In this document: one piece after another, positions 2,878-22,540 of the stretch
Layout: the number at the start of each line of letters is the position of its first letter
How positions within the stretch are numbered: position 1 is the stretch's first letter
NCBI GenBank assembly: GCA_964576475.1
Contig: CAZNVG010000015.1
Location: 1-23,694 of the forward strand
Reading direction: 5' to 3'
DNA length: 23,694 nt
From: an uncultured Candidatus Saccharibacteria bacterium
GTDB taxonomy: Bacteria > Patescibacteriota > Saccharimonadia > Saccharimonadales > CAZNVG01
Program-made: the position numbers and the translations under genes
The notes under the pieces: generated by a model
Told to the model about the DNA's origin: nothing
The model's input: only the letters and a program-made list of their open reading frames with translations
The model's database searches: none

Positions 2878-3648
2878 CTACAATCTTCCGTCAAGTATTA
2901 GCGTGCCGTCCATCGTTTCTATAAAGCCAACGATGTGCTCTGTAGTCTGAGTGGTTGATTCTATTGTCATACTAAGTGGAGCTGTCTTGTAAATATGTCG
3001 AGCTGTAGCTTCCTGTTCGGTGGAGCGCATTGTGCCGAGTTGAGTGTAGGTGTGCGATGGAAGTAATTCAGGTTTTTCGTTGTTCGCCCATATTGGACCG
3101 AACCACGTGTCGCGGAGAACTTCTGCACCTCCAGAATGCGGTTCGATAATTCGCAACATTATAGTGCGCATGTGGGAGCGAGCGGAAGGGTCGTCCACAA
3201 ACTGACGACTAGCCAGTCGCGGCCTCTTCGCATCAAACAGCCCAATTTGTATTGTTTCGTCGACAGCGAGTTTTCCGACATCTAAAAAGCCCCATGTTTT
3301 TACATCCATATCAATAGATCGTCTGTAGTTTTCGTTGGCCAACTCCATCTTGCGTAGGTCAAAGGAGTGTTGTAAATGATGCGCTAATTCATCGTTGCCG
3401 ACAATTTGCGCGTATAGAGCGGCAAACTCTACTGGAGAGAGTTCGGATAGACGTTCGGCAATCAAGGGTTCCGATACACGAACAAACGCTTCGGTGAATA
3501 CGGCATCGAGATTATCATCTGGCTGTGTCTCATCTTGCAAGCGGGCAGTAATATAGTCATGAATAGACTGCGCCATCTCTAAAGTGGTTTCGTCAGGCAG
3601 TATATCTGTCGGTGTTGGCTCGCTTGGTGAACGTTTTTCTCGTGCCAT
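2878..3648 (-). CDS. Hypothetical protein (no recognised domain)
   Basis: 256-aa ORF convergent with the GH114 gene. On the minus strand a GGAG Shine-Dalgarno lies 6 nt before the ATG, with TATAGT upstream. Coding-like composition. Confidence 0.6.
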   Translation of the reverse strand: MAREKRSPSEPTPTDILPDETTLEMAQSIHDYITARLQDETQPDDNLDAVFTEAFVRVSEPLIAERLSELSPVEFAALYAQIVGNDELAHHLQHSFDLRKMELANENYRRSIDMDVKTWGFLDVGKLAVDETIQIGLFDAKRPRLASRQFVDDPSARSHMRTIMLRIIEPHSGGAEVLRDTWFGPIWANNEKPELLPSHTYTQLGTMRSTEQEATARHIYKTAPLSMTIESTTQTTEHIVGFIETMDGTLILDGRL

Positions 3649-3933: not shown

Positions 3934-5937
3934 TCAGCTGTCGGAGGACTCCGGCTCGGCTGCGCCGACGGTCGCCAGTTCCGGCTTGTGGCCGTTGTCG
4001 TTGACCTGGCCGGCCGCAAGCGATGCCATGACCATGGCGCTGATCGCGTCGCCGGTACCGCCCGAGCTGCCAACCTGGATGTTCGGCGTGATCACGACAC
4101 GGCCCTTGGCGATGGCTTCGATGACTGCGACTGCAGCCGTCTGCGCCTCGCCGATGGCCTCCTTCTGAGCCTGGAAGCCCGCCGCGACCGCGAGACCCTT
4201 GGCCTTCTCGGCATCCGCCGTGGCGGTACCGATCGCCTTGATCTTGGCAGCTTCGGCATCGCCGACCGTGGTGGTCACCTCGGCCTTGCCCTTGGCTTCC
4301 GCGACGTTGGCTTCTGCCTCACGCGTCTTGATCTCGACCGAGACCTTCGCCTTGGCGAGGTCGCCCTGCATGTCGGCTTCACCGCGCTGCGCTTCGAGCG
4401 CGACGCGTGCCTGCTGGGCGTCCTGCTGAGACTTGAAGGTCTCCTTCTCCTGCGCCGCGATCTCGCGTGTCGTCAGAACTTCGACGAGCGATTGCGGGAA
4501 CACGACGTCCTGGATGTAGACACCGCGGACTTCGACGAGGTAGTCCTCGAGGTAGTCCTTGATGTACGTCATGGCGTCGGCCTGGACGGCGGTACGCGTC
4601 TCGATGAACTCCATGGCGGTGAGTTCCTGCAGCTTGTTCCGGAAGTGGTTGCCCACTGCCGACTGCAGGACCTCGTTGACCAGGTTCTCCATCGAGGCGA
4701 CGCTGCCGATGACGCGAGGCGCGTTGGTGTCGGGCACGTGGATCTGAACCTGCAGATCGATCTTGAAGCTGAAGGCCTCGCGGCTCTTGGCTTCGATCGG
4801 GCTGAGGTTCGCGTCCAGGCTGTGTGCCTCGCTCGTTGCGTTCGCCCAGTTGAGCGTCAGGATCGAGGTCGGCACGATCTTCGCCTGGTAGATGCGCGGG
4901 TTCAACGGGTACTTGCCCGTGCGCAGCGATTCCTTCCAGATGCCCCGATGTCCCGGCTGGACGATCGAACCATGCTTGTACGTCTCACCCGAGGTGTCGA
5001 GCGGCGGCAAGCCCACGTAGGACTTGATGACGCCGACCTCACCTTGGTTGACGACCAGCATCGGCACGATCTCGACCGAGAACAGGAACGGGTTCAGCAG
5101 GTAGGTGCCGTAGAGCAGCGGGTCGTGTTGCAACCCGATGCGTCCGCCGGCCTCCAGGAACGCTTCGAAGTCCTGGTAGTTGTTGTGGAGGTTGTTCTTC
5201 GTCCCCAACAACAGCTGGATGATCTCTGCGTCGCTGGCTCCCTCGGCTTCCTTGGCCGTGATGTCCTCGAAGCCACCCAGCCGGCATGCCATGTCGCCCG
5301 AGGGCAAAGGCGGTCCTTCGTTCGCCGTGACGATGCCGATGTAGTCGACCGAGTCGTCGTTCGGGTTTGGCCGAATGACGGTTGTCGACAACTGATCGGG
5401 CGTCAGACGAGAGATCGCTGCCGAGGTGCCCTCGGAAACGACCTTGCCGTAGGTGGCGCCGAGCGTTGCGACGGCGAAGGCGACAGGATGCATCGGGATG
5501 GTCGTGCCTGGAGGCAGAACCGGCCGTTGCACACCGCGCTGACCGCCGTTCGCCATGAAGGCTGGCAGATCACTGAAGTCACCGAGTGCCGGCGTGTATT
5601 CAGCGGTCTTCGCACCGGGAACGGTCGGGTTGCCGACCTGTGCGATGACCACGCCGATGCCGCCAGGAGGAATCTGCACCCAAGGGTACAGCTCCACCTT
5701 GTAGAGCGGCCACAGCTTGAATCGCCAGCCCGGCATCAGAACATCGGGTTGATAACCGGCTTCGCCCTTCTGGGCGATGAGCTGGTTCTCGCCCTTCTTT
5801 CCCCATGCCTTGGTGACCAGTCCGATCTTGGACGGGCCGATGTTGTGCAGGGAATTCGTGATGAACTTCCAGAGGAAGAGCAACACCACGAGTCCGCCTG
5901 CAGCGAATCCGATGAGTTTGAAAGGTACGTCGTCCAC
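3934..5937 (-). CDS. Flotillin / SPFH (band-7, YqiK-like) membrane scaffold protein. High-GC island 1.
   Basis: N-terminal TM helix (FKLIGFAAGGLVVLLFLW), then an SPFH domain, then a C-terminal Ala/Glu/Lys-rich flotillin repeat region ending ...KGRVVITPNIQVGSSGG. This matches the canonical flotillin C-terminus. Preferred start is GTG at 5937, preceded by AGGAGA (5946-5941). The spacing is only 3 nt, so the start is uncertain. The six-frame ORF runs on to TTG at 6003, and an in-frame ATG at 5994 would add 19 low-GC residues. Strong GC3 bias on the minus strand. Confidence 0.75.
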   Translation of the reverse strand: MDDVPFKLIGFAAGGLVVLLFLWKFITNSLHNIGPSKIGLVTKAWGKKGENQLIAQKGEAGYQPDVLMPGWRFKLWPLYKVELYPWVQIPPGGIGVVIAQVGNPTVPGAKTAEYTPALGDFSDLPAFMANGGQRGVQRPVLPPGTTIPMHPVAFAVATLGATYGKVVSEGTSAAISRLTPDQLSTTVIRPNPNDDSVDYIGIVTANEGPPLPSGDMACRLGGFEDITAKEAEGASDAEIIQLLLGTKNNLHNNYQDFEAFLEAGGRIGLQHDPLLYGTYLLNPFLFSVEIVPMLVVNQGEVGVIKSYVGLPPLDTSGETYKHGSIVQPGHRGIWKESLRTGKYPLNPRIYQAKIVPTSILTLNWANATSEAHSLDANLSPIEAKSREAFSFKIDLQVQIHVPDTNAPRVIGSVASMENLVNEVLQSAVGNHFRNKLQELTAMEFIETRTAVQADAMTYIKDYLEDYLVEVRGVYIQDVVFPQSLVEVLTTREIAAQEKETFKSQQDAQQARVALEAQRGEADMQGDLAKAKVSVEIKTREAEANVAEAKGKAEVTTTVGDAEAAKIKAIGTATADAEKAKGLAVAAGFQAQKEAIGEAQTAAVAVIEAIAKGRVVITPNIQVGSSGGTGDAISAMVMASLAAGQVNDNGHKPELATVGAAEPESSDS

Positions 5938-5974
5938 ATGTCTCCTTTGATAGTGTGCGTGGGCAATCAAATAT

Positions 5975-6003
5975 ACTATAAAACTTCGTTGCATAAATAG
6001 CAA
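5975..6003 (-). promoter_or_regulatory. Sigma70-like promoter TTGCTA-17nt-TATAGT upstream of the flotillin gene
   Basis: On the minus strand the -35 TTGCTA is at 6003-5998, the spacer is exactly 17 nt, and the -10 TATAGT is at 5980-5975. It is AT-rich, in the background style, and sits immediately upstream of the GC-rich CDS. Confidence 0.4.
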
Positions 6004-13000: not shown

Positions 13001-13052
13001 GCTAGGTGAGGTACGTGTGCTTTTATGACAGAGCACACCTATCTCATCTAGC
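13001..13052. repeat. 21-nt imperfect inverted repeat (hairpin) in the leader of the island-2 gene
   Basis: Left arm GCTAGGTGAGGTACGTGTGCT (13001-13021), a 10-nt loop, right arm AGCACACCTATCTCATCTAGC (13032-13052). There is 1 true mismatch and 2 G-U-compatible positions. A perfect TTGACA lies at 12979-12984 just upstream. Confidence 0.5.
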
Positions 13053-13119
13053 AAATGGAAACACCCACTTGCAGCAATCAGAGATTGTCGGCATCAAGCC
13101 GAGTGAGAGAGAGGAAATC

Positions 13120-14001
13120 ATGACCTCGGTCATCACCCGCAAGTCCACCCACCCCTTCACCAACCTGACCATCAAGACCAAGACGAAGGTCTCGGGCTTC
13201 ACCGCCGGCACGGAGACGGTCATCAACGAACTGCTCACGCAGCTGTTCGGTGACTTCGTCTCCGCCATCGACCTCGTGGAGCCCAAGCTGCAGAAGCTCA
13301 TCACCGAGCCGATGCCCGGCCAGTTCACCAAGTCGCGAACCAGCATGGTCAGCGGCGTCAACGGTGTGCGCGTCGAGGTTCAGGTCGACGTCCAGATCGA
13401 CTCGATCGTCGATGCCGAACGCATCAACGAGATCGTGTCCTTCCTGTTCGAGCCGATCCTCAGCACGTCGATGTCGGCGATCGCACGTGGCGGTCTGTTC
13501 ACGCGCACGGACCTTCAGCGTCTGCGCAGCGAACACCTTCCGCCGTTCGCGGACATCGTGAGCCAGCTGGCCGGCTTCGTGGCGTCGACGTTCCAGTCGA
13601 TGGGCAGCAAGCGCACCGACTTCGGTTCGCGTCACAACTTCAGCGCCTTCGACAAGACGTTCATGCAGAACGAGAACCCGGATCGCGACCTCTACTCGCG
13701 CCTCGGTGATCTCGCCACGCGAGCACACCGCAAGGGTGCCGGCGCGCATCGTTCCGGAGCCGACACGTCCTTCTCGACCACGTCGGGTTCGATGTCCGGC
13801 GAGGACTTCCTCGAGCGACTCGGCGATCTCGATCGCTTCTTCGCTCCCGGCTTCGGTCTCGTCGACGCCATGGAGGAGAGCCCGCTCTTCGAGCGCATCG
13901 TCGGTGACGGCTTCGTGCTCGAGATGTTCGAGGTGGTCCCTCCGCCGTTCAAGACCTACGGCGACCTCAAGGATCGCCGACGCGACAGCGCCACGAGCTG
14001 A
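13120..14001 (+). CDS. Hypothetical soluble protein, no recognised domain. High-GC island 2.
   Basis: The ATG at 13120 is preceded by GAGAGAGAGG with 5-nt spacing. Strong GC3 bias on the plus strand (ACC TCG GTC ATC ACC CGC AAG TCC ...). No TM helix. 293 aa. The antisense ORF 13078-14055 is an artefact. Confidence 0.65.
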   Translation: MTSVITRKSTHPFTNLTIKTKTKVSGFTAGTETVINELLTQLFGDFVSAIDLVEPKLQKLITEPMPGQFTKSRTSMVSGVNGVRVEVQVDVQIDSIVDAERINEIVSFLFEPILSTSMSAIARGGLFTRTDLQRLRSEHLPPFADIVSQLAGFVASTFQSMGSKRTDFGSRHNFSAFDKTFMQNENPDRDLYSRLGDLATRAHRKGAGAHRSGADTSFSTTSGSMSGEDFLERLGDLDRFFAPGFGLVDAMEESPLFERIVGDGFVLEMFEVVPPPFKTYGDLKDRRRDSATS

Positions 14002-14016: not shown

Positions 14017-14051
14017 GGGGCAGCAGCCACGAGAAAGAAGGCTGCGCCCCC
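14017..14051 (+). terminator. GC-rich stem-loop downstream of the island-2 gene (factor-independent terminator of high-GC type, weak T-tract)
   Basis: GGGGCAGCAGCC (14017-14028), an 11-nt loop, GGCTGCGCCCC (14040-14050). That is about 11 bp with one bulge, followed by ...GGGTCGTTTCC. Confidence 0.45.
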
Positions 14052-14174
14052 ACAAGGGTCGTTTCCAATCAATTCTTTCTCCTCTGGCTGTCTGTCCCCC
14101 TCACTTCAATGACTACTTTGTCATTCTGACGAGTCCTCTGTAAGGACGAAAAGCGAGGTATACTAAGGTCAGTT

Positions 14175-15548
14175 GTGATTTTAGATAATCCCAGAGCTTT
14201 CAGCCTAGATAAGAACCCCGCTCCTAAGCGAGGAGCTGTTGTGTACGTCATGAGCAGAGACCAGAGGGTCGCCGACAATCACGCCTTGTTGTTGGCGCAA
14301 AGCGAGGCGCTTCGCCTTAAATCTCCACTACTAGTTGTTTTTTTCTTGCAAAAGCAGACAGGAAACAGAGCGCAGGAGCACTAGGTGTTTATGCTCAAAG
14401 GCTTAGCTGAGATTGGCGTTGAGTTGAAGTCGTATCATATTCCGTTTTTGATCCGAACAGGCAATCCAGTTACCGTACTTCGCTCTCTTGAAAAACTACT
14501 TGATGTATCGACAGTGATCATGGACTTCAATCCACTGCGCGGTCCACAGAATCGTTTTAATACATTGCATGAAAAACTAACGAGCACAGTCATTGAAGTA
14601 GATACGCACAATATTGTTCCTGCTCGGCTGGTTAGCGATAAACAAGAGTACGGTGCACGAACAATACGTCCAAAAATCCATAAACTATTGCCAGAATTCT
14701 TAGCAGAACCCGGCTCACTTAGGGTTCATCCACACACTGCTAAGCTGCCTGATGAGCTACGCGCCGGTGAAAGTTTGCATCTGCCTCGAACAGTGAAGGC
14801 TAACGGCACGCATATAGTGCAGACATCTGGGGAGATGGCTGCTCGCGAAGCGCTAGATGTATTTATAAAGGAAAGACTCAAAGGCTATGCATCACGACGC
14901 AATGATCCCACACTCGACGGCTTGAGTAAGCTAAGTCCATATTTGCATTTCGGCCAACTTGCAAGTCTTCGGGCTGTGCTTGATGTTGAGATAGCGGCCG
15001 CAAATGATCAGACACTTAGAGTTGATGCTGACGCCTTCATAGAAGAGATAGTAGTGCGAAAGGAGTTATCAGATAACTATTGTCTGCATAATAAGAATTA
15101 TGATTCCTTGCGAGGCGCTCCAGGCTGGGCCCAGAAAACACTTCATGAGCATGCGGGCGATCCAAGAGAGCGCCTGTATTCTCTACCGGAGCTAGAAGGT
15201 GCACAGACGCATGACCCAGCATGGAACGCAGCACAGCGGGAGATGCGAGTGACGGGTAAAATGCAAGGGTATATGCGCATGTACTGGGCTAAGAAAGTGC
15301 TCGAGTGGAGTCCAGATGCTGCTACGGCAATTAAGCATCTCATGTATCTCAATGATTTCTATTCTATCGATGGCGGTGATCCCAACGGCTATGTCGGTAT
15401 TCTCTGGTCAGTCGCTGGCTTGCACGATCGACCTTGGTCTACACGAGATGTGTTTGGCTCTGTTCGCTATATGAACTACCAAGGGCTAAAAAGAAAATTT
15501 GATATCACTGCATATCAAGAACAATGGGCCGATTCTCTGTCTCTCTAG
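14175..15548 (+). pseudogene. phr: Class II CPD photolyase interrupted by an in-frame TAG at 14382-14384
   Basis: ORFs 14175-14384 and 14385-15548 are in the same frame. The N-terminal part (AVVYVMSRDQRVADNHALL...LLVVFFL) and the C-terminal part (VFMLKGL ... WAKKVLEWSPDAA...YLNDFYSIDGGDPNGYVGILWSVAGLHDRPW...RYMNYQGLKRKFD) together form a complete class II photolyase. The TAG falls where homologues carry Tyr/His (RQYEFML), so it is one substitution away from TAY. TAG is a genuine stop elsewhere in the window. Confidence 0.8.
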
Positions 15549-19981: not shown

Positions 19982-20080
19982 TTGATTAAATTGCAATAAA
20001 CTGACATAATATGCGCCTACTGCACATGTGTGGTGGAACGTTTACAATTCATCCAACCATGACACCCTGGAGGTGCGCCC

Positions 20081-22372
20081 ATGCGGCGATTCATAGCAAT
20101 AATGTTCATGGCTTCGGTCATGTTCATTCCGATTGGACACGCTGGTGCCAGCATGCTCCAAACCGTACCTGACTGCGACGCAGTCGTGCTCTCGTACGGA
20201 GACAGTCCGTTTGACGCCGCCGATCAGTCGTTTCAAGCGGCAGTAGAGCGTCTGCGATCAAACGACATCGACCTGCATGTCTGGGTCGTGCCAACCATCA
20301 AGCAAGCTGACGATCTGGCGTGGAAGAACGCCATGGTGTCACAGTGTCCGAACTGGCGCGAAGGCGACGATCTCGCTGCACGTACGTTCGTGATGCTGGT
20401 GACCTTCGAGGGTCCTCGTGGCGAGCGTCCGATCGGAGCTCGGTGGGGCTACGATCTTAGGTCGCAGCTCAGCGATTCAGACTGGTATGCGACACGAGAC
20501 AACTACCTGATTCCGAACTTGCGCGAAGGAGACTTCACGCGAGCGGTGACGGAGAGTCTTGATCGTTTCAGCGACATCATCGAAGGTGTCGACGATTCGT
20601 TCGTGCCAGCACAAGACACCGACAGCATCGCCAACGAAGCAGGCGGTGTCGACTCGGGTGGAGTTTCTGTCCCGTGGGCTCGAATTCTGTCGTGGCTCGG
20701 CGCAGGTCTGACGCTCATCGCGGCCGTGGCGGCATCAGTTCTCGGCATCCGTCGATACCTCGCCATCAAGGCAGTTCGTGCTGAAGCGGCGCGTGACTTC
20801 GAAGAGGCTCGGACGAGCTACTTCGATGCCGCGACGTTGCAGGATCAGTTGCATCAGCGCGCTGTGGTGCGACTCGGCAAGCTCGAAGCCAGCGAGGCGG
20901 CAAGCCTTGTTGACATTGAGCGAGCCGCATTGGCTCAGATGAGCGAGGTCACGCCCAGAATCGACGAGTTCGATAGTCGGATCAAGCAGCGTCGCTCCGG
21001 CGATGACTGGTCGACGTTCGGAGACGAAGTCGAGCGGTTTCGGGCTGACGTAGCCGGCACCAAAAGTGCGTTCGGTGACCTGCAAATTCGGCTCGACGAG
21101 CTGGACAAGTGGGAAGCTGAACTGCCGGCGATGCTCGATGATCTCGATGCGCAAGTGCCAAAAGTCGTTGCAGCAATCAAGCGGCAAAGCGATGCGGGTT
21201 TCCGTGTCGATTATCCGCAGCGTGTGCTGGATGACGGTCGTGCCATACTTCAGCAGGCGCGTGAGAAATTGAGCTCGAACGCCTTTGGCGCAGCCTGCCA
21301 GTCGGTGATGGAGTGCAGACTCGTTCTCCAAAAGGCGACTGAAGAGGCTGACGGGCTTCCGAAGCGATACGCCGATCTGCAGACTTGGATCGACGATCTG
21401 CAGGACGAACTCAAGCTCAACGTCGCTGCCCAGCAAACGGTCTCGCAAACACTGCACAGGCTTGTCGAGGAGTACAACCTGGACTCGCTCACCAGTGTGA
21501 GGGGGAACGATGTCACGGCGTCCGACAACAACGCCCAGTCTGCCAAGCTTCTCGATCTGGCAACTCGCCTGAGCGACATGAAGCAGCAGGATTGGGATGG
21601 TGCTGAAGGTGCGTGCCGGCAGGCCGAGACGTTGATCGACTCGACCAAGTCCATGCTCGAGGCGACGACTGCGCTGGATGTCAAGTTGCGTAATGCGCAT
21701 ACGCAAGCTCCCGGAACTCTCCGTGAGCTGACGCAGAACGCACAAGCTGCGCAGAGCTACGTCGACCAGCATCGTGGCGATATCGACACGAGCGTTGACC
21801 GATCCCTTCGAGAAGTCGAAGGTCGGATTTCGCAACTGGAGACGGAGCTCAGCAGGGAGAAGCCGGAGTACTTGTCCGTCTTGGACGAGCTCGCCAGCAT
21901 CAGCCAGGCGATCGAGTCGGCTCAGCAAAGCGCAGAACGCCAACACCAGAACATGGTGCAAGCGGCGTCAGTTGCTAAGTCGGCAATCGATGAGGCAGCT
22001 AGCTACATCTCTCGGAACTCAGGCATCGTGGAGAGCTCGGCTCGTAGCCAGCTTGATACCGCCCGAACCGAGTACAGCAACGGGCAGAACGCTCGTGGTC
22101 CAGAAGAGAAGCTGGCATATTTCCAGCGAGCTGCCAACGACGCCCAGTCGGCGGAATCGTCAGCTCGTTCAGACGTTGCCGCCGAAGAGGCACGGCTTCG
22201 TCGCATCGAAGAAGAGCGACGTCGTCGCGAGGACGAAGAGCGTCGTCGCCGGCAGCGCGAAGAAGACGATCGGCGTAGCTCCTCCATCAGCTCAAGCTCA
22301 AGCAGCTTCTCGAGTTTCGACTCGGGTGGCAGTAGCGGAGGAGACTCCGGTGGCGGGGGTGGCAGCTGGTAG
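20081..22372 (+). CDS. TPM-domain (TLP18.3/Psb32/MOLO-1-like) membrane protein with a long coiled-coil and a C-terminal Arg/Glu then Ser/Gly low-complexity tail. High-GC island 3.
   Basis: GGAGG lies 7 nt before the ATG. Signal peptide MRRFIAIMFMASVMFIPIGHAGAS. TPM-like core (DLHVWVVPT...FVMLVTFEGPRGERPIGARWGYDLRSQLSD). TM helix ILSWLGAGLTLIAAVAASVLGI. About 450 aa of heptad-rich sequence. Tail RRIEEERRRREDEERRRRQREEDDRRSSSISSSSSSFSSFDSGGSSGGDSGGGGGSW. Strong GC3 bias. Confidence 0.7.
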   Translation: MRRFIAIMFMASVMFIPIGHAGASMLQTVPDCDAVVLSYGDSPFDAADQSFQAAVERLRSNDIDLHVWVVPTIKQADDLAWKNAMVSQCPNWREGDDLAARTFVMLVTFEGPRGERPIGARWGYDLRSQLSDSDWYATRDNYLIPNLREGDFTRAVTESLDRFSDIIEGVDDSFVPAQDTDSIANEAGGVDSGGVSVPWARILSWLGAGLTLIAAVAASVLGIRRYLAIKAVRAEAARDFEEARTSYFDAATLQDQLHQRAVVRLGKLEASEAASLVDIERAALAQMSEVTPRIDEFDSRIKQRRSGDDWSTFGDEVERFRADVAGTKSAFGDLQIRLDELDKWEAELPAMLDDLDAQVPKVVAAIKRQSDAGFRVDYPQRVLDDGRAILQQAREKLSSNAFGAACQSVMECRLVLQKATEEADGLPKRYADLQTWIDDLQDELKLNVAAQQTVSQTLHRLVEEYNLDSLTSVRGNDVTASDNNAQSAKLLDLATRLSDMKQQDWDGAEGACRQAETLIDSTKSMLEATTALDVKLRNAHTQAPGTLRELTQNAQAAQSYVDQHRGDIDTSVDRSLREVEGRISQLETELSREKPEYLSVLDELASISQAIESAQQSAERQHQNMVQAASVAKSAIDEAASYISRNSGIVESSARSQLDTARTEYSNGQNARGPEEKLAYFQRAANDAQSAESSARSDVAAEEARLRRIEEERRRREDEERRRRQREEDDRRSSSISSSSSSFSSFDSGGSSGGDSGGGGGSW

Positions 22373-22408
22373 TCGGTTACCGCAAAGTGGTTGGATGAAG
22401 TAGGGCTT

Positions 22409-22468
22409 GGTGTCCAGAGTCGTGTGTGGTGGAGAAATCCATTGCTTTATACACCCACTCTGGACACC
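22409..22468. repeat. Perfect 12-bp inverted repeat between convergent genes (possible bidirectional terminator or protein-binding palindrome)
   Basis: GGTGTCCAGAGT (22409-22420) and ACTCTGGACACC (22457-22468), separated by 36 nt. No clear T-tract on either side. Confidence 0.4.
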
Positions 22469-22540
22469 AACCCTACACATCGAATCTAGGAATAGACATG
22501 AGGTCCTACTGATGAGTCGCAATAACGACGAAATTCGATT

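Follow-up and report, generated by a model that had tools for sequence, protein, structure and literature searches.

A TPM-domain membrane protein with a predicted EzrA-like cytoplasmic scaffold and a putative hammerhead ribozyme behind its gene in a Saccharibacteria lineage

The TPM membrane protein YdjH (SamH) of Bacillus subtilis binds PspA and the SPFH protein YdjI (PMC8581546), and its deletion abolishes the membrane foci of both partners (PMC8581546; bioRxiv 10.64898/2026.02.06.704340). A PspA partner described as 'TPM + long coiled coil' was noted by Ravi et al. (2024). EzrA has five triple-helix repeats (PMC4243239), and in prophages hammerhead ribozymes often flank single genes (PMC3088659). 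Here we describe a gene from an uncultured Candidatus Saccharibacteria bacterium that brings these elements together, found in a stretch of 23,694 nucleotides that makes up an entire contig (GenBank assembly GCA_964576475.1, contig CAZNVG010000015.1, forward strand; hereafter the window). The gene encodes a 763-residue protein, which we call TPM-long. The evidence inclines us, though not strongly, to a joint reading in which the protein has a TPM ectodomain and an EzrA-like cytoplasmic scaffold, belongs to a family of PspA partners, is encoded by a laterally acquired copy that stands alone, and has a gene that ends in a hairpin and a hammerhead. The protein itself diverges from the other members of a kind that is known but has hardly been described; islands with a ribozyme tail are a novel variation.

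Layout, fold and predicted topology of the protein

The open reading frame (ORF) and its parts are as follows; GC3 is the GC content at third codon positions.

20081..22372, + strand: TPM-long family ORF, 763 aa, GC 0.59, GC3 0.66 (neighbours 0.37-0.50)
20081..20152, + strand: signal-peptide-like N-terminus, residues 1-24 (MRRFIAIMFMASVMFIPIGHAGAS), by hydropathy, positive N-terminus and small end residues
20168..20590, + strand: TPM domain, about residues 30-170, predicted extracytoplasmic, with the Cys pair C32/C89
20684..20752, + strand: transmembrane helix, residues 202-224, by hydropathy, with the basic stretch RRYLAIKAVR next
20753..22198, + strand: conserved helical domain, residues 225-706, predicted cytoplasmic, with about five EzrA-like triple-helix (spectrin-type) repeats
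22199..22270, + strand: Arg/Glu-rich helix RRIEEERRRREDEERRRRQREEDD, residues 707-730, at the end of the last modelled helix (674-728)
22277..22369, + strand: disordered Ser/Gly tail ending GGGGGSW, the terminal Trp near-invariant in the family

A preliminary description of this region had proposed a TPM domain, and a hidden Markov model search bears this out: the Pfam model TPM_phosphatase (PF04536) matches residues 57-164 with 26.8 bits against a cutoff of 22.1 (E 5.7e-6), and Foldseek agrees on the alpha/beta fold of a TPM domain. The cysteines C32 and C89 are near-invariant in the family, which has no conserved cysteines outside the TPM domain, and the ectodomain is probably stabilized by a disulfide. 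The hydrophobic N-terminal segment (residues 1-24) ends in HAGAS, where a signal peptide may be cleaved, and RRYLAIKAVRAEAAR comes after the hydrophobic helix 202-224, itself part of a helix that runs unbroken from 203 to 265 in the AlphaFold model. As a signal peptide is combined with a single transmembrane helix that is followed by basic residues, and as the Cys pair is confined to the TPM domain, we predict a bitopic inner-membrane protein with the TPM domain outside and the ~540 C-terminal residues in the cytoplasm. Both hydrophobic segments had been recognized before, but the protein had been called secreted, which does not fit a bitopic membrane protein. The Arg/Glu tract and the following Ser/Gly tail ending in W are present exactly as first quoted.

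The helical domain of ~480 residues is covered by no Pfam model in scans of the window protein and of family members. AlphaFold, run with a 41-sequence family alignment, returned a mean predicted local distance difference test (pLDDT) score of 84.6, with values above 90 across the helical part and below 50 for residues 725-754. The region is modelled not as a single rod but as 11 helices of ~20-63 residues separated by short loops (203-265, 270-303, 310-371, 377-398, 402-464, 476-497, 505-563, 570-590, 597-645, 652-670 and 674-728), in which long and short helices alternate with a spacing of ~90-100 residues. The region includes 8 Pro and 18 Gly. Most 56-residue windows have little Fourier power at period 3.5, and the continuous heptads and uninterrupted helix of a canonical long dimeric coiled coil were not seen. 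The 'very long heptad-rich coiled coil' of the preliminary description is thus not upheld.

The best structural match other than TPM proteins is EzrA (Foldseek probability 0.85), which is also the sole natural one with ~400 aligned residues, and the order of a transmembrane anchor followed by linear triple-helix (spectrin-like) repeats is that of EzrA. At the level of sequence the family profile matches EzrA with an E of 3.6e-7 that is made of several weak stretches, none of the 41 family members matches the Pfam EzrA model at E<=0.1, and the NCBIfam EzrA model gives 17.8 bits against a cutoff of 556, so that the protein falls outside the EzrA sequence family. The modelled fold thus resembles that of EzrA, and in view of the weak profile match and of the lack of membership in the EzrA models we call it EzrA-like without claiming homology.

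The preliminary description had also seen a filamentous or spacer protein of the envelope, that is, an extracytoplasmic coiled coil spanning the envelope. The region is indeed long and helical in the AlphaFold model; it gives weak matches to tropomyosin, keratin and SMC proteins, which reflect its helical composition; and docking of the C-terminal strand on the TPM domain, discussed below, would put both ends of the protein on the same side. Such a filament is nevertheless highly improbable, since the signal peptide and single transmembrane helix followed by a basic stretch place the C-terminal part inside, conserved cysteines are absent from that part, the heptad signal is weak with 11 helices arranged in bundles, and PspA, the usual neighbour of the family, is cytoplasmic. 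The protein does have a conserved long helical extension and a Gly-rich tail, and the broader suggestion that it looks more like a scaffold than a simple enzyme holds up.

The TPM-long family, its pspA neighbours and the window copy

To collect relatives we used exhaustive HMMER searches with the low-complexity tail removed; a word-indexed search in which the tail was kept found the 95% orthologue alone, the tail having probably swamped the candidates. HMMER gave 259 cluster representatives at E<=1e-3 and 142 at E<=1e-10. Nearly all of the 150 matches listed are 745-850 aa long and align end to end at 20-29% identity, typically query 30-705 against target 25-710, which answers the earlier expectation of homologues with the same domain order. 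The family is collinear over about 770 aa and has throughout the order of signal peptide, TPM domain, transmembrane helix, long helical region and Gly-rich tail with a terminal Trp, with conserved columns that span the whole length and include VRGNGTEA, KPDYL and the terminal Trp. All 41 aligned members match PF04536, the best with an E of 6.4e-16.

The 41-sequence alignment held no stretch conserved enough for a scan of genomic loci, which was made with an 8-sequence subset that leaves out the window's own subfamily. It yielded 30 loci in species-representative genomes, whose metagenome-assembled genome (MAG) labels span at least seven phyla and include Chloroflexi (Dehalococcoidia, Chloroflexia), Patescibacteria, Acidobacteria, Gammaproteobacteria/Pseudomonadota, Caldisericota, Coprothermobacterota and Methanomassiliicoccus. 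A link to Actinobacteria, drawn in the preliminary description, is not seen for this family, the named relatives coming from other labelled groups.

In 23 of the 30 loci the family gene is followed, after 60-370 nt and in the same orientation, by a homologous ORF of ~230 aa, and five of six such ORFs tested pass the Pfam cutoff for PspA_IM30 (40-54 bits against 33.9). No other conserved neighbour occurs in more than five of the 30 loci. The TPM-long family is the one that Ravi et al. (2024) recorded as a PspA partner. The neighbouring PspAs (loci L009-L031) score 300-400 bits against their own profile and 40-54 against Pfam PspA_IM30. These genomic data suggest that the PspAs beside TPM-long genes form a tight subfamily, a dedicated partner that would co-evolve with the TPM-long protein.

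The window copy is an outlying member. Its nearest relative outside its own lineage, among the matches listed, is 26% identical, and its composition is foreign to its surroundings: the gene has 59% GC against a background of 44-50% (which is not the low-GC genome first supposed), its GC3 exceeds that of all neighbours, and it stands 12 GC points above its flanks, whereas elsewhere family genes are mostly 0-7 points above and at one locus below. At least four other assemblies have an orthologue of ~95% identity in the same position, between the genes for exonuclease I (ExoI) and prephenate dehydratase. In L108, a more distant relative, LysM-CHAP, Obg and ExoI genes stand in a row and no TPM-long gene follows ExoI. 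The ratio of nonsynonymous to synonymous substitution rates (dN/dS) is 0.185 against the orthologue in L001. The window copy has probably been acquired laterally into a mid-GC genome and has since diverged; it is kept by purifying selection.

Several side observations concern the same comparison. The L108 contig (ENA NODE_1, 197.5 kb, ~57% GC) has neither the hammerheads nor the three GC-rich islands described below, and lacks the photolyase and the three hypothetical genes that separate Obg from ExoI in the window; the Obg annotated in L108 has 562 aa, its N-terminal part being duplicated. For the Obg of the window, the sole named match among the matches listed is 'Candidatus Saccharibacteria bacterium' at 60% identity, which points tentatively to a Saccharibacteria host.

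These data bear on a second alternative, in which the protein would work as EzrA does, a cytoplasmic arch that regulates or tethers FtsZ or another cytoskeletal polymer and so links division to an extracellular TPM sensor, instead of working with PspA. EzrA is the best structural match and has in common with TPM-long a transmembrane helix followed by about five repeats (PMC4243239), and the window copy has no pspA nearby. We regard this role as unlikely, since the synteny of the family is strong with pspA and not with division genes, the protein is no member of the EzrA sequence family, and a lateral gene that is specific to a strain lineage and absent from L108 would be a surprising core division factor.

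A third alternative takes the protein to be mainly an enzyme, an extracytoplasmic phosphatase or nucleotidase of the TPM type for which the remainder is only an anchor. TPM is the sole recognized domain, and some TPM proteins have been reported to have phosphatase or ATPase/ADPase activity (works cited in PMC11237479). Against an enzyme speak the ~480 conserved collinear cytoplasmic residues under selection and the residue at position 38, which is Ser in the window protein and in P0001 where at least 90% of the family has the Asp of strand beta1 (VVD motif). Other TPM proteins are assembly factors, one of which is described as binding neither metal nor nucleotide (PMC13456599). A purely enzymatic role is therefore very unlikely.

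The signals around the gene are listed here.

20069..20073, + strand: Shine-Dalgarno sequence GGAGG, 7 nt before the ATG at 20081, read from the sequence
19982..20048, + strand: two overlapping sigma-70-like promoter candidates from a consensus scan
20048..20059, no strand: left arm TTCATCCAACCA of a perfect 12-nt inverted repeat (partner 22388-22399)
22388..22399, no strand: right arm TGGTTGGATGAA of the same repeat

The Shine-Dalgarno sequence favours the 763-aa start over the 756-aa NCBI call (P0397). Both promoter candidates (TTGATT-17-CATAAT, which has an extended TG, and TGCACA-16-TACAAT) fall within the spacer of 99 nt before the gene and may drive it; this upstream spacer is identical to that of L001 at 100 of 102 positions, against a synonymous divergence (dS) of 0.14-0.37 in neighbouring genes. 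The arms of the inverted repeat bracket the GC-rich part of the island, with a chance expectation of ~1e-3 for such a repeat in both spacers by our own arithmetic; the left arm has one mismatch in L001. The left arm comes directly after a -10-like box, and the right arm is followed at once by the long hairpin described below. The repeat could serve in pairing of the 5' and 3' untranslated regions (UTRs) or be the remnant of an insertion.

A hairpin and a putative hammerhead behind the gene, and two further islands

The TPM-long gene is one of three GC-rich ORFs in the window, each of which is followed by a hammerhead motif (HHR).

22400..22476, + strand: 77-nt 3'-UTR hairpin, dG -48.2 kcal/mol, z -8.3
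22479..22539, + strand: HHR-3, type III hammerhead motif (Rfam RF00008 and descriptor search), after the TPM-long gene (GC3 0.66); gap after the stop codon 106 nt; 43.9 bits
14099-14158, + strand: HHR-2, after the island-2 ORF (GC3 0.84); gap 97 nt; 19.7 bits
3727-3673, - strand: HHR-1, after the SPFH gene (GC3 0.82); gap 206 nt; 16.9 bits

The 12-bp inverted repeat reported earlier behind the TPM-long gene is real and was understated, as it forms part of 17-nt arms (22404-22420 and 22457-22473) within the 77-nt hairpin. No T-run or terminator-like T-tract follows this hairpin. It is followed instead by HHR-3, first found by a permissive Rfam scan of the downstream spacer and matched over the full model (1-54, E 9.8e-7) when the whole window was compared with all 4227 families. 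Its stems are AUCGAAU/AUUCGAU (III), UAGGA/UCCUA (I) and GUCG/CGAC followed by GAA (II), around the core CUGAUGA. The predicted cleavage site, after C22486, lies 10 nt beyond the hairpin. HHR-3 ends 1 nt from the stop codon of a convergent pheA-like gene. It is kept in L001, L002 and L109 with a single change, in loop 1, and the 168-nt downstream spacer is identical to that of L001 at 166 positions while neighbouring genes differ with the dS given above. A metagenome scan gave 0 matches to HHR-3-like sequences.

On the simplest reading, the ribozyme would set the 3' end of the mRNA, and hairpin and hammerhead together would insulate the transcript: an mRNA that cleaved itself after C22486 would keep the protective hairpin almost at its very end, and any read-through RNA would be severed from it.

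The other two motifs came from a structural descriptor (core CUGANGA...GAA, a non-G at cleavage position 17, three stems with stem III open), used in place of a covariance model as MAFFT misaligned the stems of the three ribozymes. It found exactly three hammerhead motifs in the window and none in 300 dinucleotide shuffles. Each lies downstream, on the coding strand, of its own GC-rich ORF, a one-to-one link that covers three cases within ~32 kb from a single lineage. In all three spacers Hammerhead_3 ranks first among the Rfam families; the matches of HHR-1 and HHR-2 are local, omit stem III and fall below the gathering score of 48.5, and the minimum-energy folds of both are the three-way hammerhead junction. 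HHR-3 and HHR-2 have the pair A15.1-U16.1, where HHR-1 has U15.1-A16.1, a natural variant of low activity (PMC3088659). The core of HHR-2 is CUGACGA, with one A.C mismatch in stem III, and reads CUGAUGA in sister strains, position 7 being variable. A GC-rich hairpin (14017-14050, dG -22.2 kcal/mol, z -5.0) precedes it. All three motifs are kept in L109, with HHR-1 identical, and HHR-2 and HHR-3 are kept in L001, which does not cover island 1; strain differences are confined to N7 and the loops.

High GC is confined to the island ORFs. The untranslated regions and ribozymes have 41-59% GC, and the one part of them above 52% is the 97 nt that separate the stop codon of island 2 from HHR-2. The window is otherwise tightly packed: six of its spacers are longer than ~55 nt, and five of these are island flanks. 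No shared flank motif, repeat or mobile-element signature was found among the three islands beyond the ribozyme core, and no hammerhead was found in 465 kb beside SPFH relatives and other family members.

We put forward tentatively that this Saccharibacteria lineage carries foreign genes as units of ORF, strong hairpin and type III hammerhead, which would serve insulation, or else that the units reflect the capture of ribozyme-marked cassettes. If insulation is right, self-cleavage shields tightly packed resident genes from read-through and is a natural counterpart of synthetic ribozyme insulators; the cassette reading, if right, would amount to a route of gene-cassette capture so far undescribed. 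On either reading the TPM-long and SPFH proteins would be membrane-maintenance parts obtained at least partly from Actinobacteria.

A different explanation would sever the hammerhead and hairpin from the TPM-long gene and see in them a relic of a delivery vehicle of phage type, or a processing signal for resident genes. Bacterial hammerheads often flank single prophage genes (PMC3088659), viral contigs often carry ribozymes with an identical stem II, in some cases four to an array, and the ribozymes of the window are host-like in GC, unlike the ORFs. In addition, 24 nt separate the end of HHR-1 from the start codon of the next minus-strand gene (2878-3648), and HHR-2 lies just upstream of the longer start of the photolyase gene as called in L001. 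On the other side, the window holds no phage or integrase genes, no relatives of the TPM-long protein were found in the viral collection IMG/VR, the three ribozymes are alike in the core only, strain changes are limited to N7 and the loops, and no same-strand gene lies downstream of HHR-3. We hold this explanation to be doubtful, if far from negligible.

The remaining contents of the first two islands can be summarized briefly. Island 1 (3934-6003, - strand) encodes a 688-aa SPFH/Band 7 protein (Pfam 68.7 bits, GC3 0.82), whose relatives among the matches listed are 57-66% identical. As the named ones come from Acidimicrobiales, Ilumatobacteraceae and Microthrixaceae MAGs, their labels point to a transfer of the SPFH gene from Actinobacteria. 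The SPFH protein of island 1 and the TPM-long protein of island 3 might act together, by analogy with B. subtilis, where an SPFH and a TPM protein are both partners of PspA. The island-2 ORF (13006-14001, + strand, probable start 13120) has a GC3 of 0.84 and an opposite-strand ORF that resembles a shadow; no Pfam or NCBIfam model matches the island-2 ORF. Its dN/dS of 0.67 against L001 is far above that of its neighbours, and in both L001 and L109 it is the minus strand that the gene callers have annotated. That its product might be the partner encoded by the ORF flanking the SPFH gene in Actinobacteria was rejected, as the two have no similarity. The photolyase-like ORF 14385-15548 encodes 387 aa here, 385 aa in L109 and 457 aa in L001, and its Pfam match starts at profile position 50; its N-terminus, which with the stretch 14159-14384 comes right after HHR-2, may be disrupted or differently started in some strains. 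In the viral loci L050, L063 and L086, which are phage contigs, four hammerhead-core matches with stem II GUCG/CGAC form arrays, spaced 200-850 nt apart, as is known from prophages in which ribozymes flank single genes.

Proposed role and comparison with known systems

The most likely role of the TPM-long protein would be that of a membrane anchor with a curved scaffold at the inner face, which may hold or organize PspA-type, and possibly SPFH-type, assemblies while the TPM ectodomain reports on or binds something outside. Such a scaffold is paralleled by YdjH/SamH, which is needed for the membrane recruitment of PspA and YdjI.

Several observations weigh against the joint reading favoured here. 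The last six residues (757-762, GGGGSW; window 22349-22366) are modelled by AlphaFold as a beta strand, with mean pLDDT rising from ~35 in the preceding tail to 53 (751-760) and 80 (761-763), and the only other strands of the model are in the TPM domain, predicted to lie across the membrane; if the C-terminal strand does pair with these, it would be at odds with the predicted topology. Of 73 columns conserved in the family, 26 depart from the consensus in the window copy, the beta1 Asp among them. No pspA-like ORF was found within ~10 kb in the window, L001 or L109, either in gene lists or with a profile of the partner PspAs, which gave no matches even unfiltered, so the copy at hand lacks the adjacent pspA of a TPM-long or YdjH-type partner. 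Finally, the 43.9 bits of HHR-3 fall short of the Rfam gathering score of 48.5, a level at which Rfam reports nothing in the window, and its self-cleavage is a prediction.

The preliminary description fared well in its observations and in suggesting a scaffold, and less well in the compartment, where the predicted topology puts the helical region in the cytoplasm, in the coiled coil and in the taxonomic link. The linkage to pspA, the foreign composition of the TPM-long gene and the hammerhead behind the hairpin had escaped it.

With these data, a PspA partner that was previously a one-line genomic observation gains a concrete predicted fold and topology, and an EzrA-like cytoplasmic arch hints at a way in which PspA polymers, which are of ESCRT-III type, could be kept at the membrane. 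The islands may also record the uptake of membrane-maintenance genes by a Saccharibacteria host, with at least one island closest to Actinobacteria, the host phylum on which cultured Saccharibacteria grow (PMC10633639). The role of bacterial hammerheads is a long-standing open question, for which a window with three of them offers a small testable case.

Among described systems, YdjH of the pspA-ydjGHI (samGHI) operon is likewise a TPM-domain membrane protein genetically linked to pspA. The two differ in that the extension of TPM-long comprises ~480 residues, which form a conserved domain of EzrA-like repeats. The family forms a two-gene unit with pspA only, unlike the YdjH operon, and the window copy has no pspA neighbour. 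YdjH also has an SPFH partner, and an SPFH gene lies 14 kb from the window copy, but in a separate foreign island. EzrA (B. subtilis 4UXV, S. aureus 4UY3) has no ectodomain, in contrast to the TPM ectodomain of the window protein, and the genomic partner of the TPM-long family is pspA rather than division genes.

TPM proteins of the YgcG/COG1512 type have in common with TPM-long a signal peptide, TPM domain, transmembrane helix and Gly-rich tail, and the closest distant homologue is named 'uncharacterized membrane protein YgcG' in IMG. Their tail, too, presumably ends in an aromatic residue. What sets TPM-long apart is a helical domain of ~500 residues inserted between transmembrane helix and tail, which the common short forms are not known to have. 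The solved TPM chains that matched, of the TLP18.3, Psb32 and BA41-BA42 kind, are 140-404 residues long, none aligning past the TPM domain and membrane segment, and their roles in the assembly of photosystem and respiratory complexes are not applicable to a Saccharibacteria-like cell.

Hammerhead cores between genes are also a feature of synthetic ribozyme insulators such as RiboJ. The prophage hammerheads of Perreault et al. (2011) resemble those of the window in having canonical cores between genes, whose cleavage yields single-gene transcripts. The ribozymes of the window differ from them in being chromosomal with no phage genes nearby, in being all of type III, and in standing each after a strong hairpin and one-to-one with GC-rich foreign ORFs.

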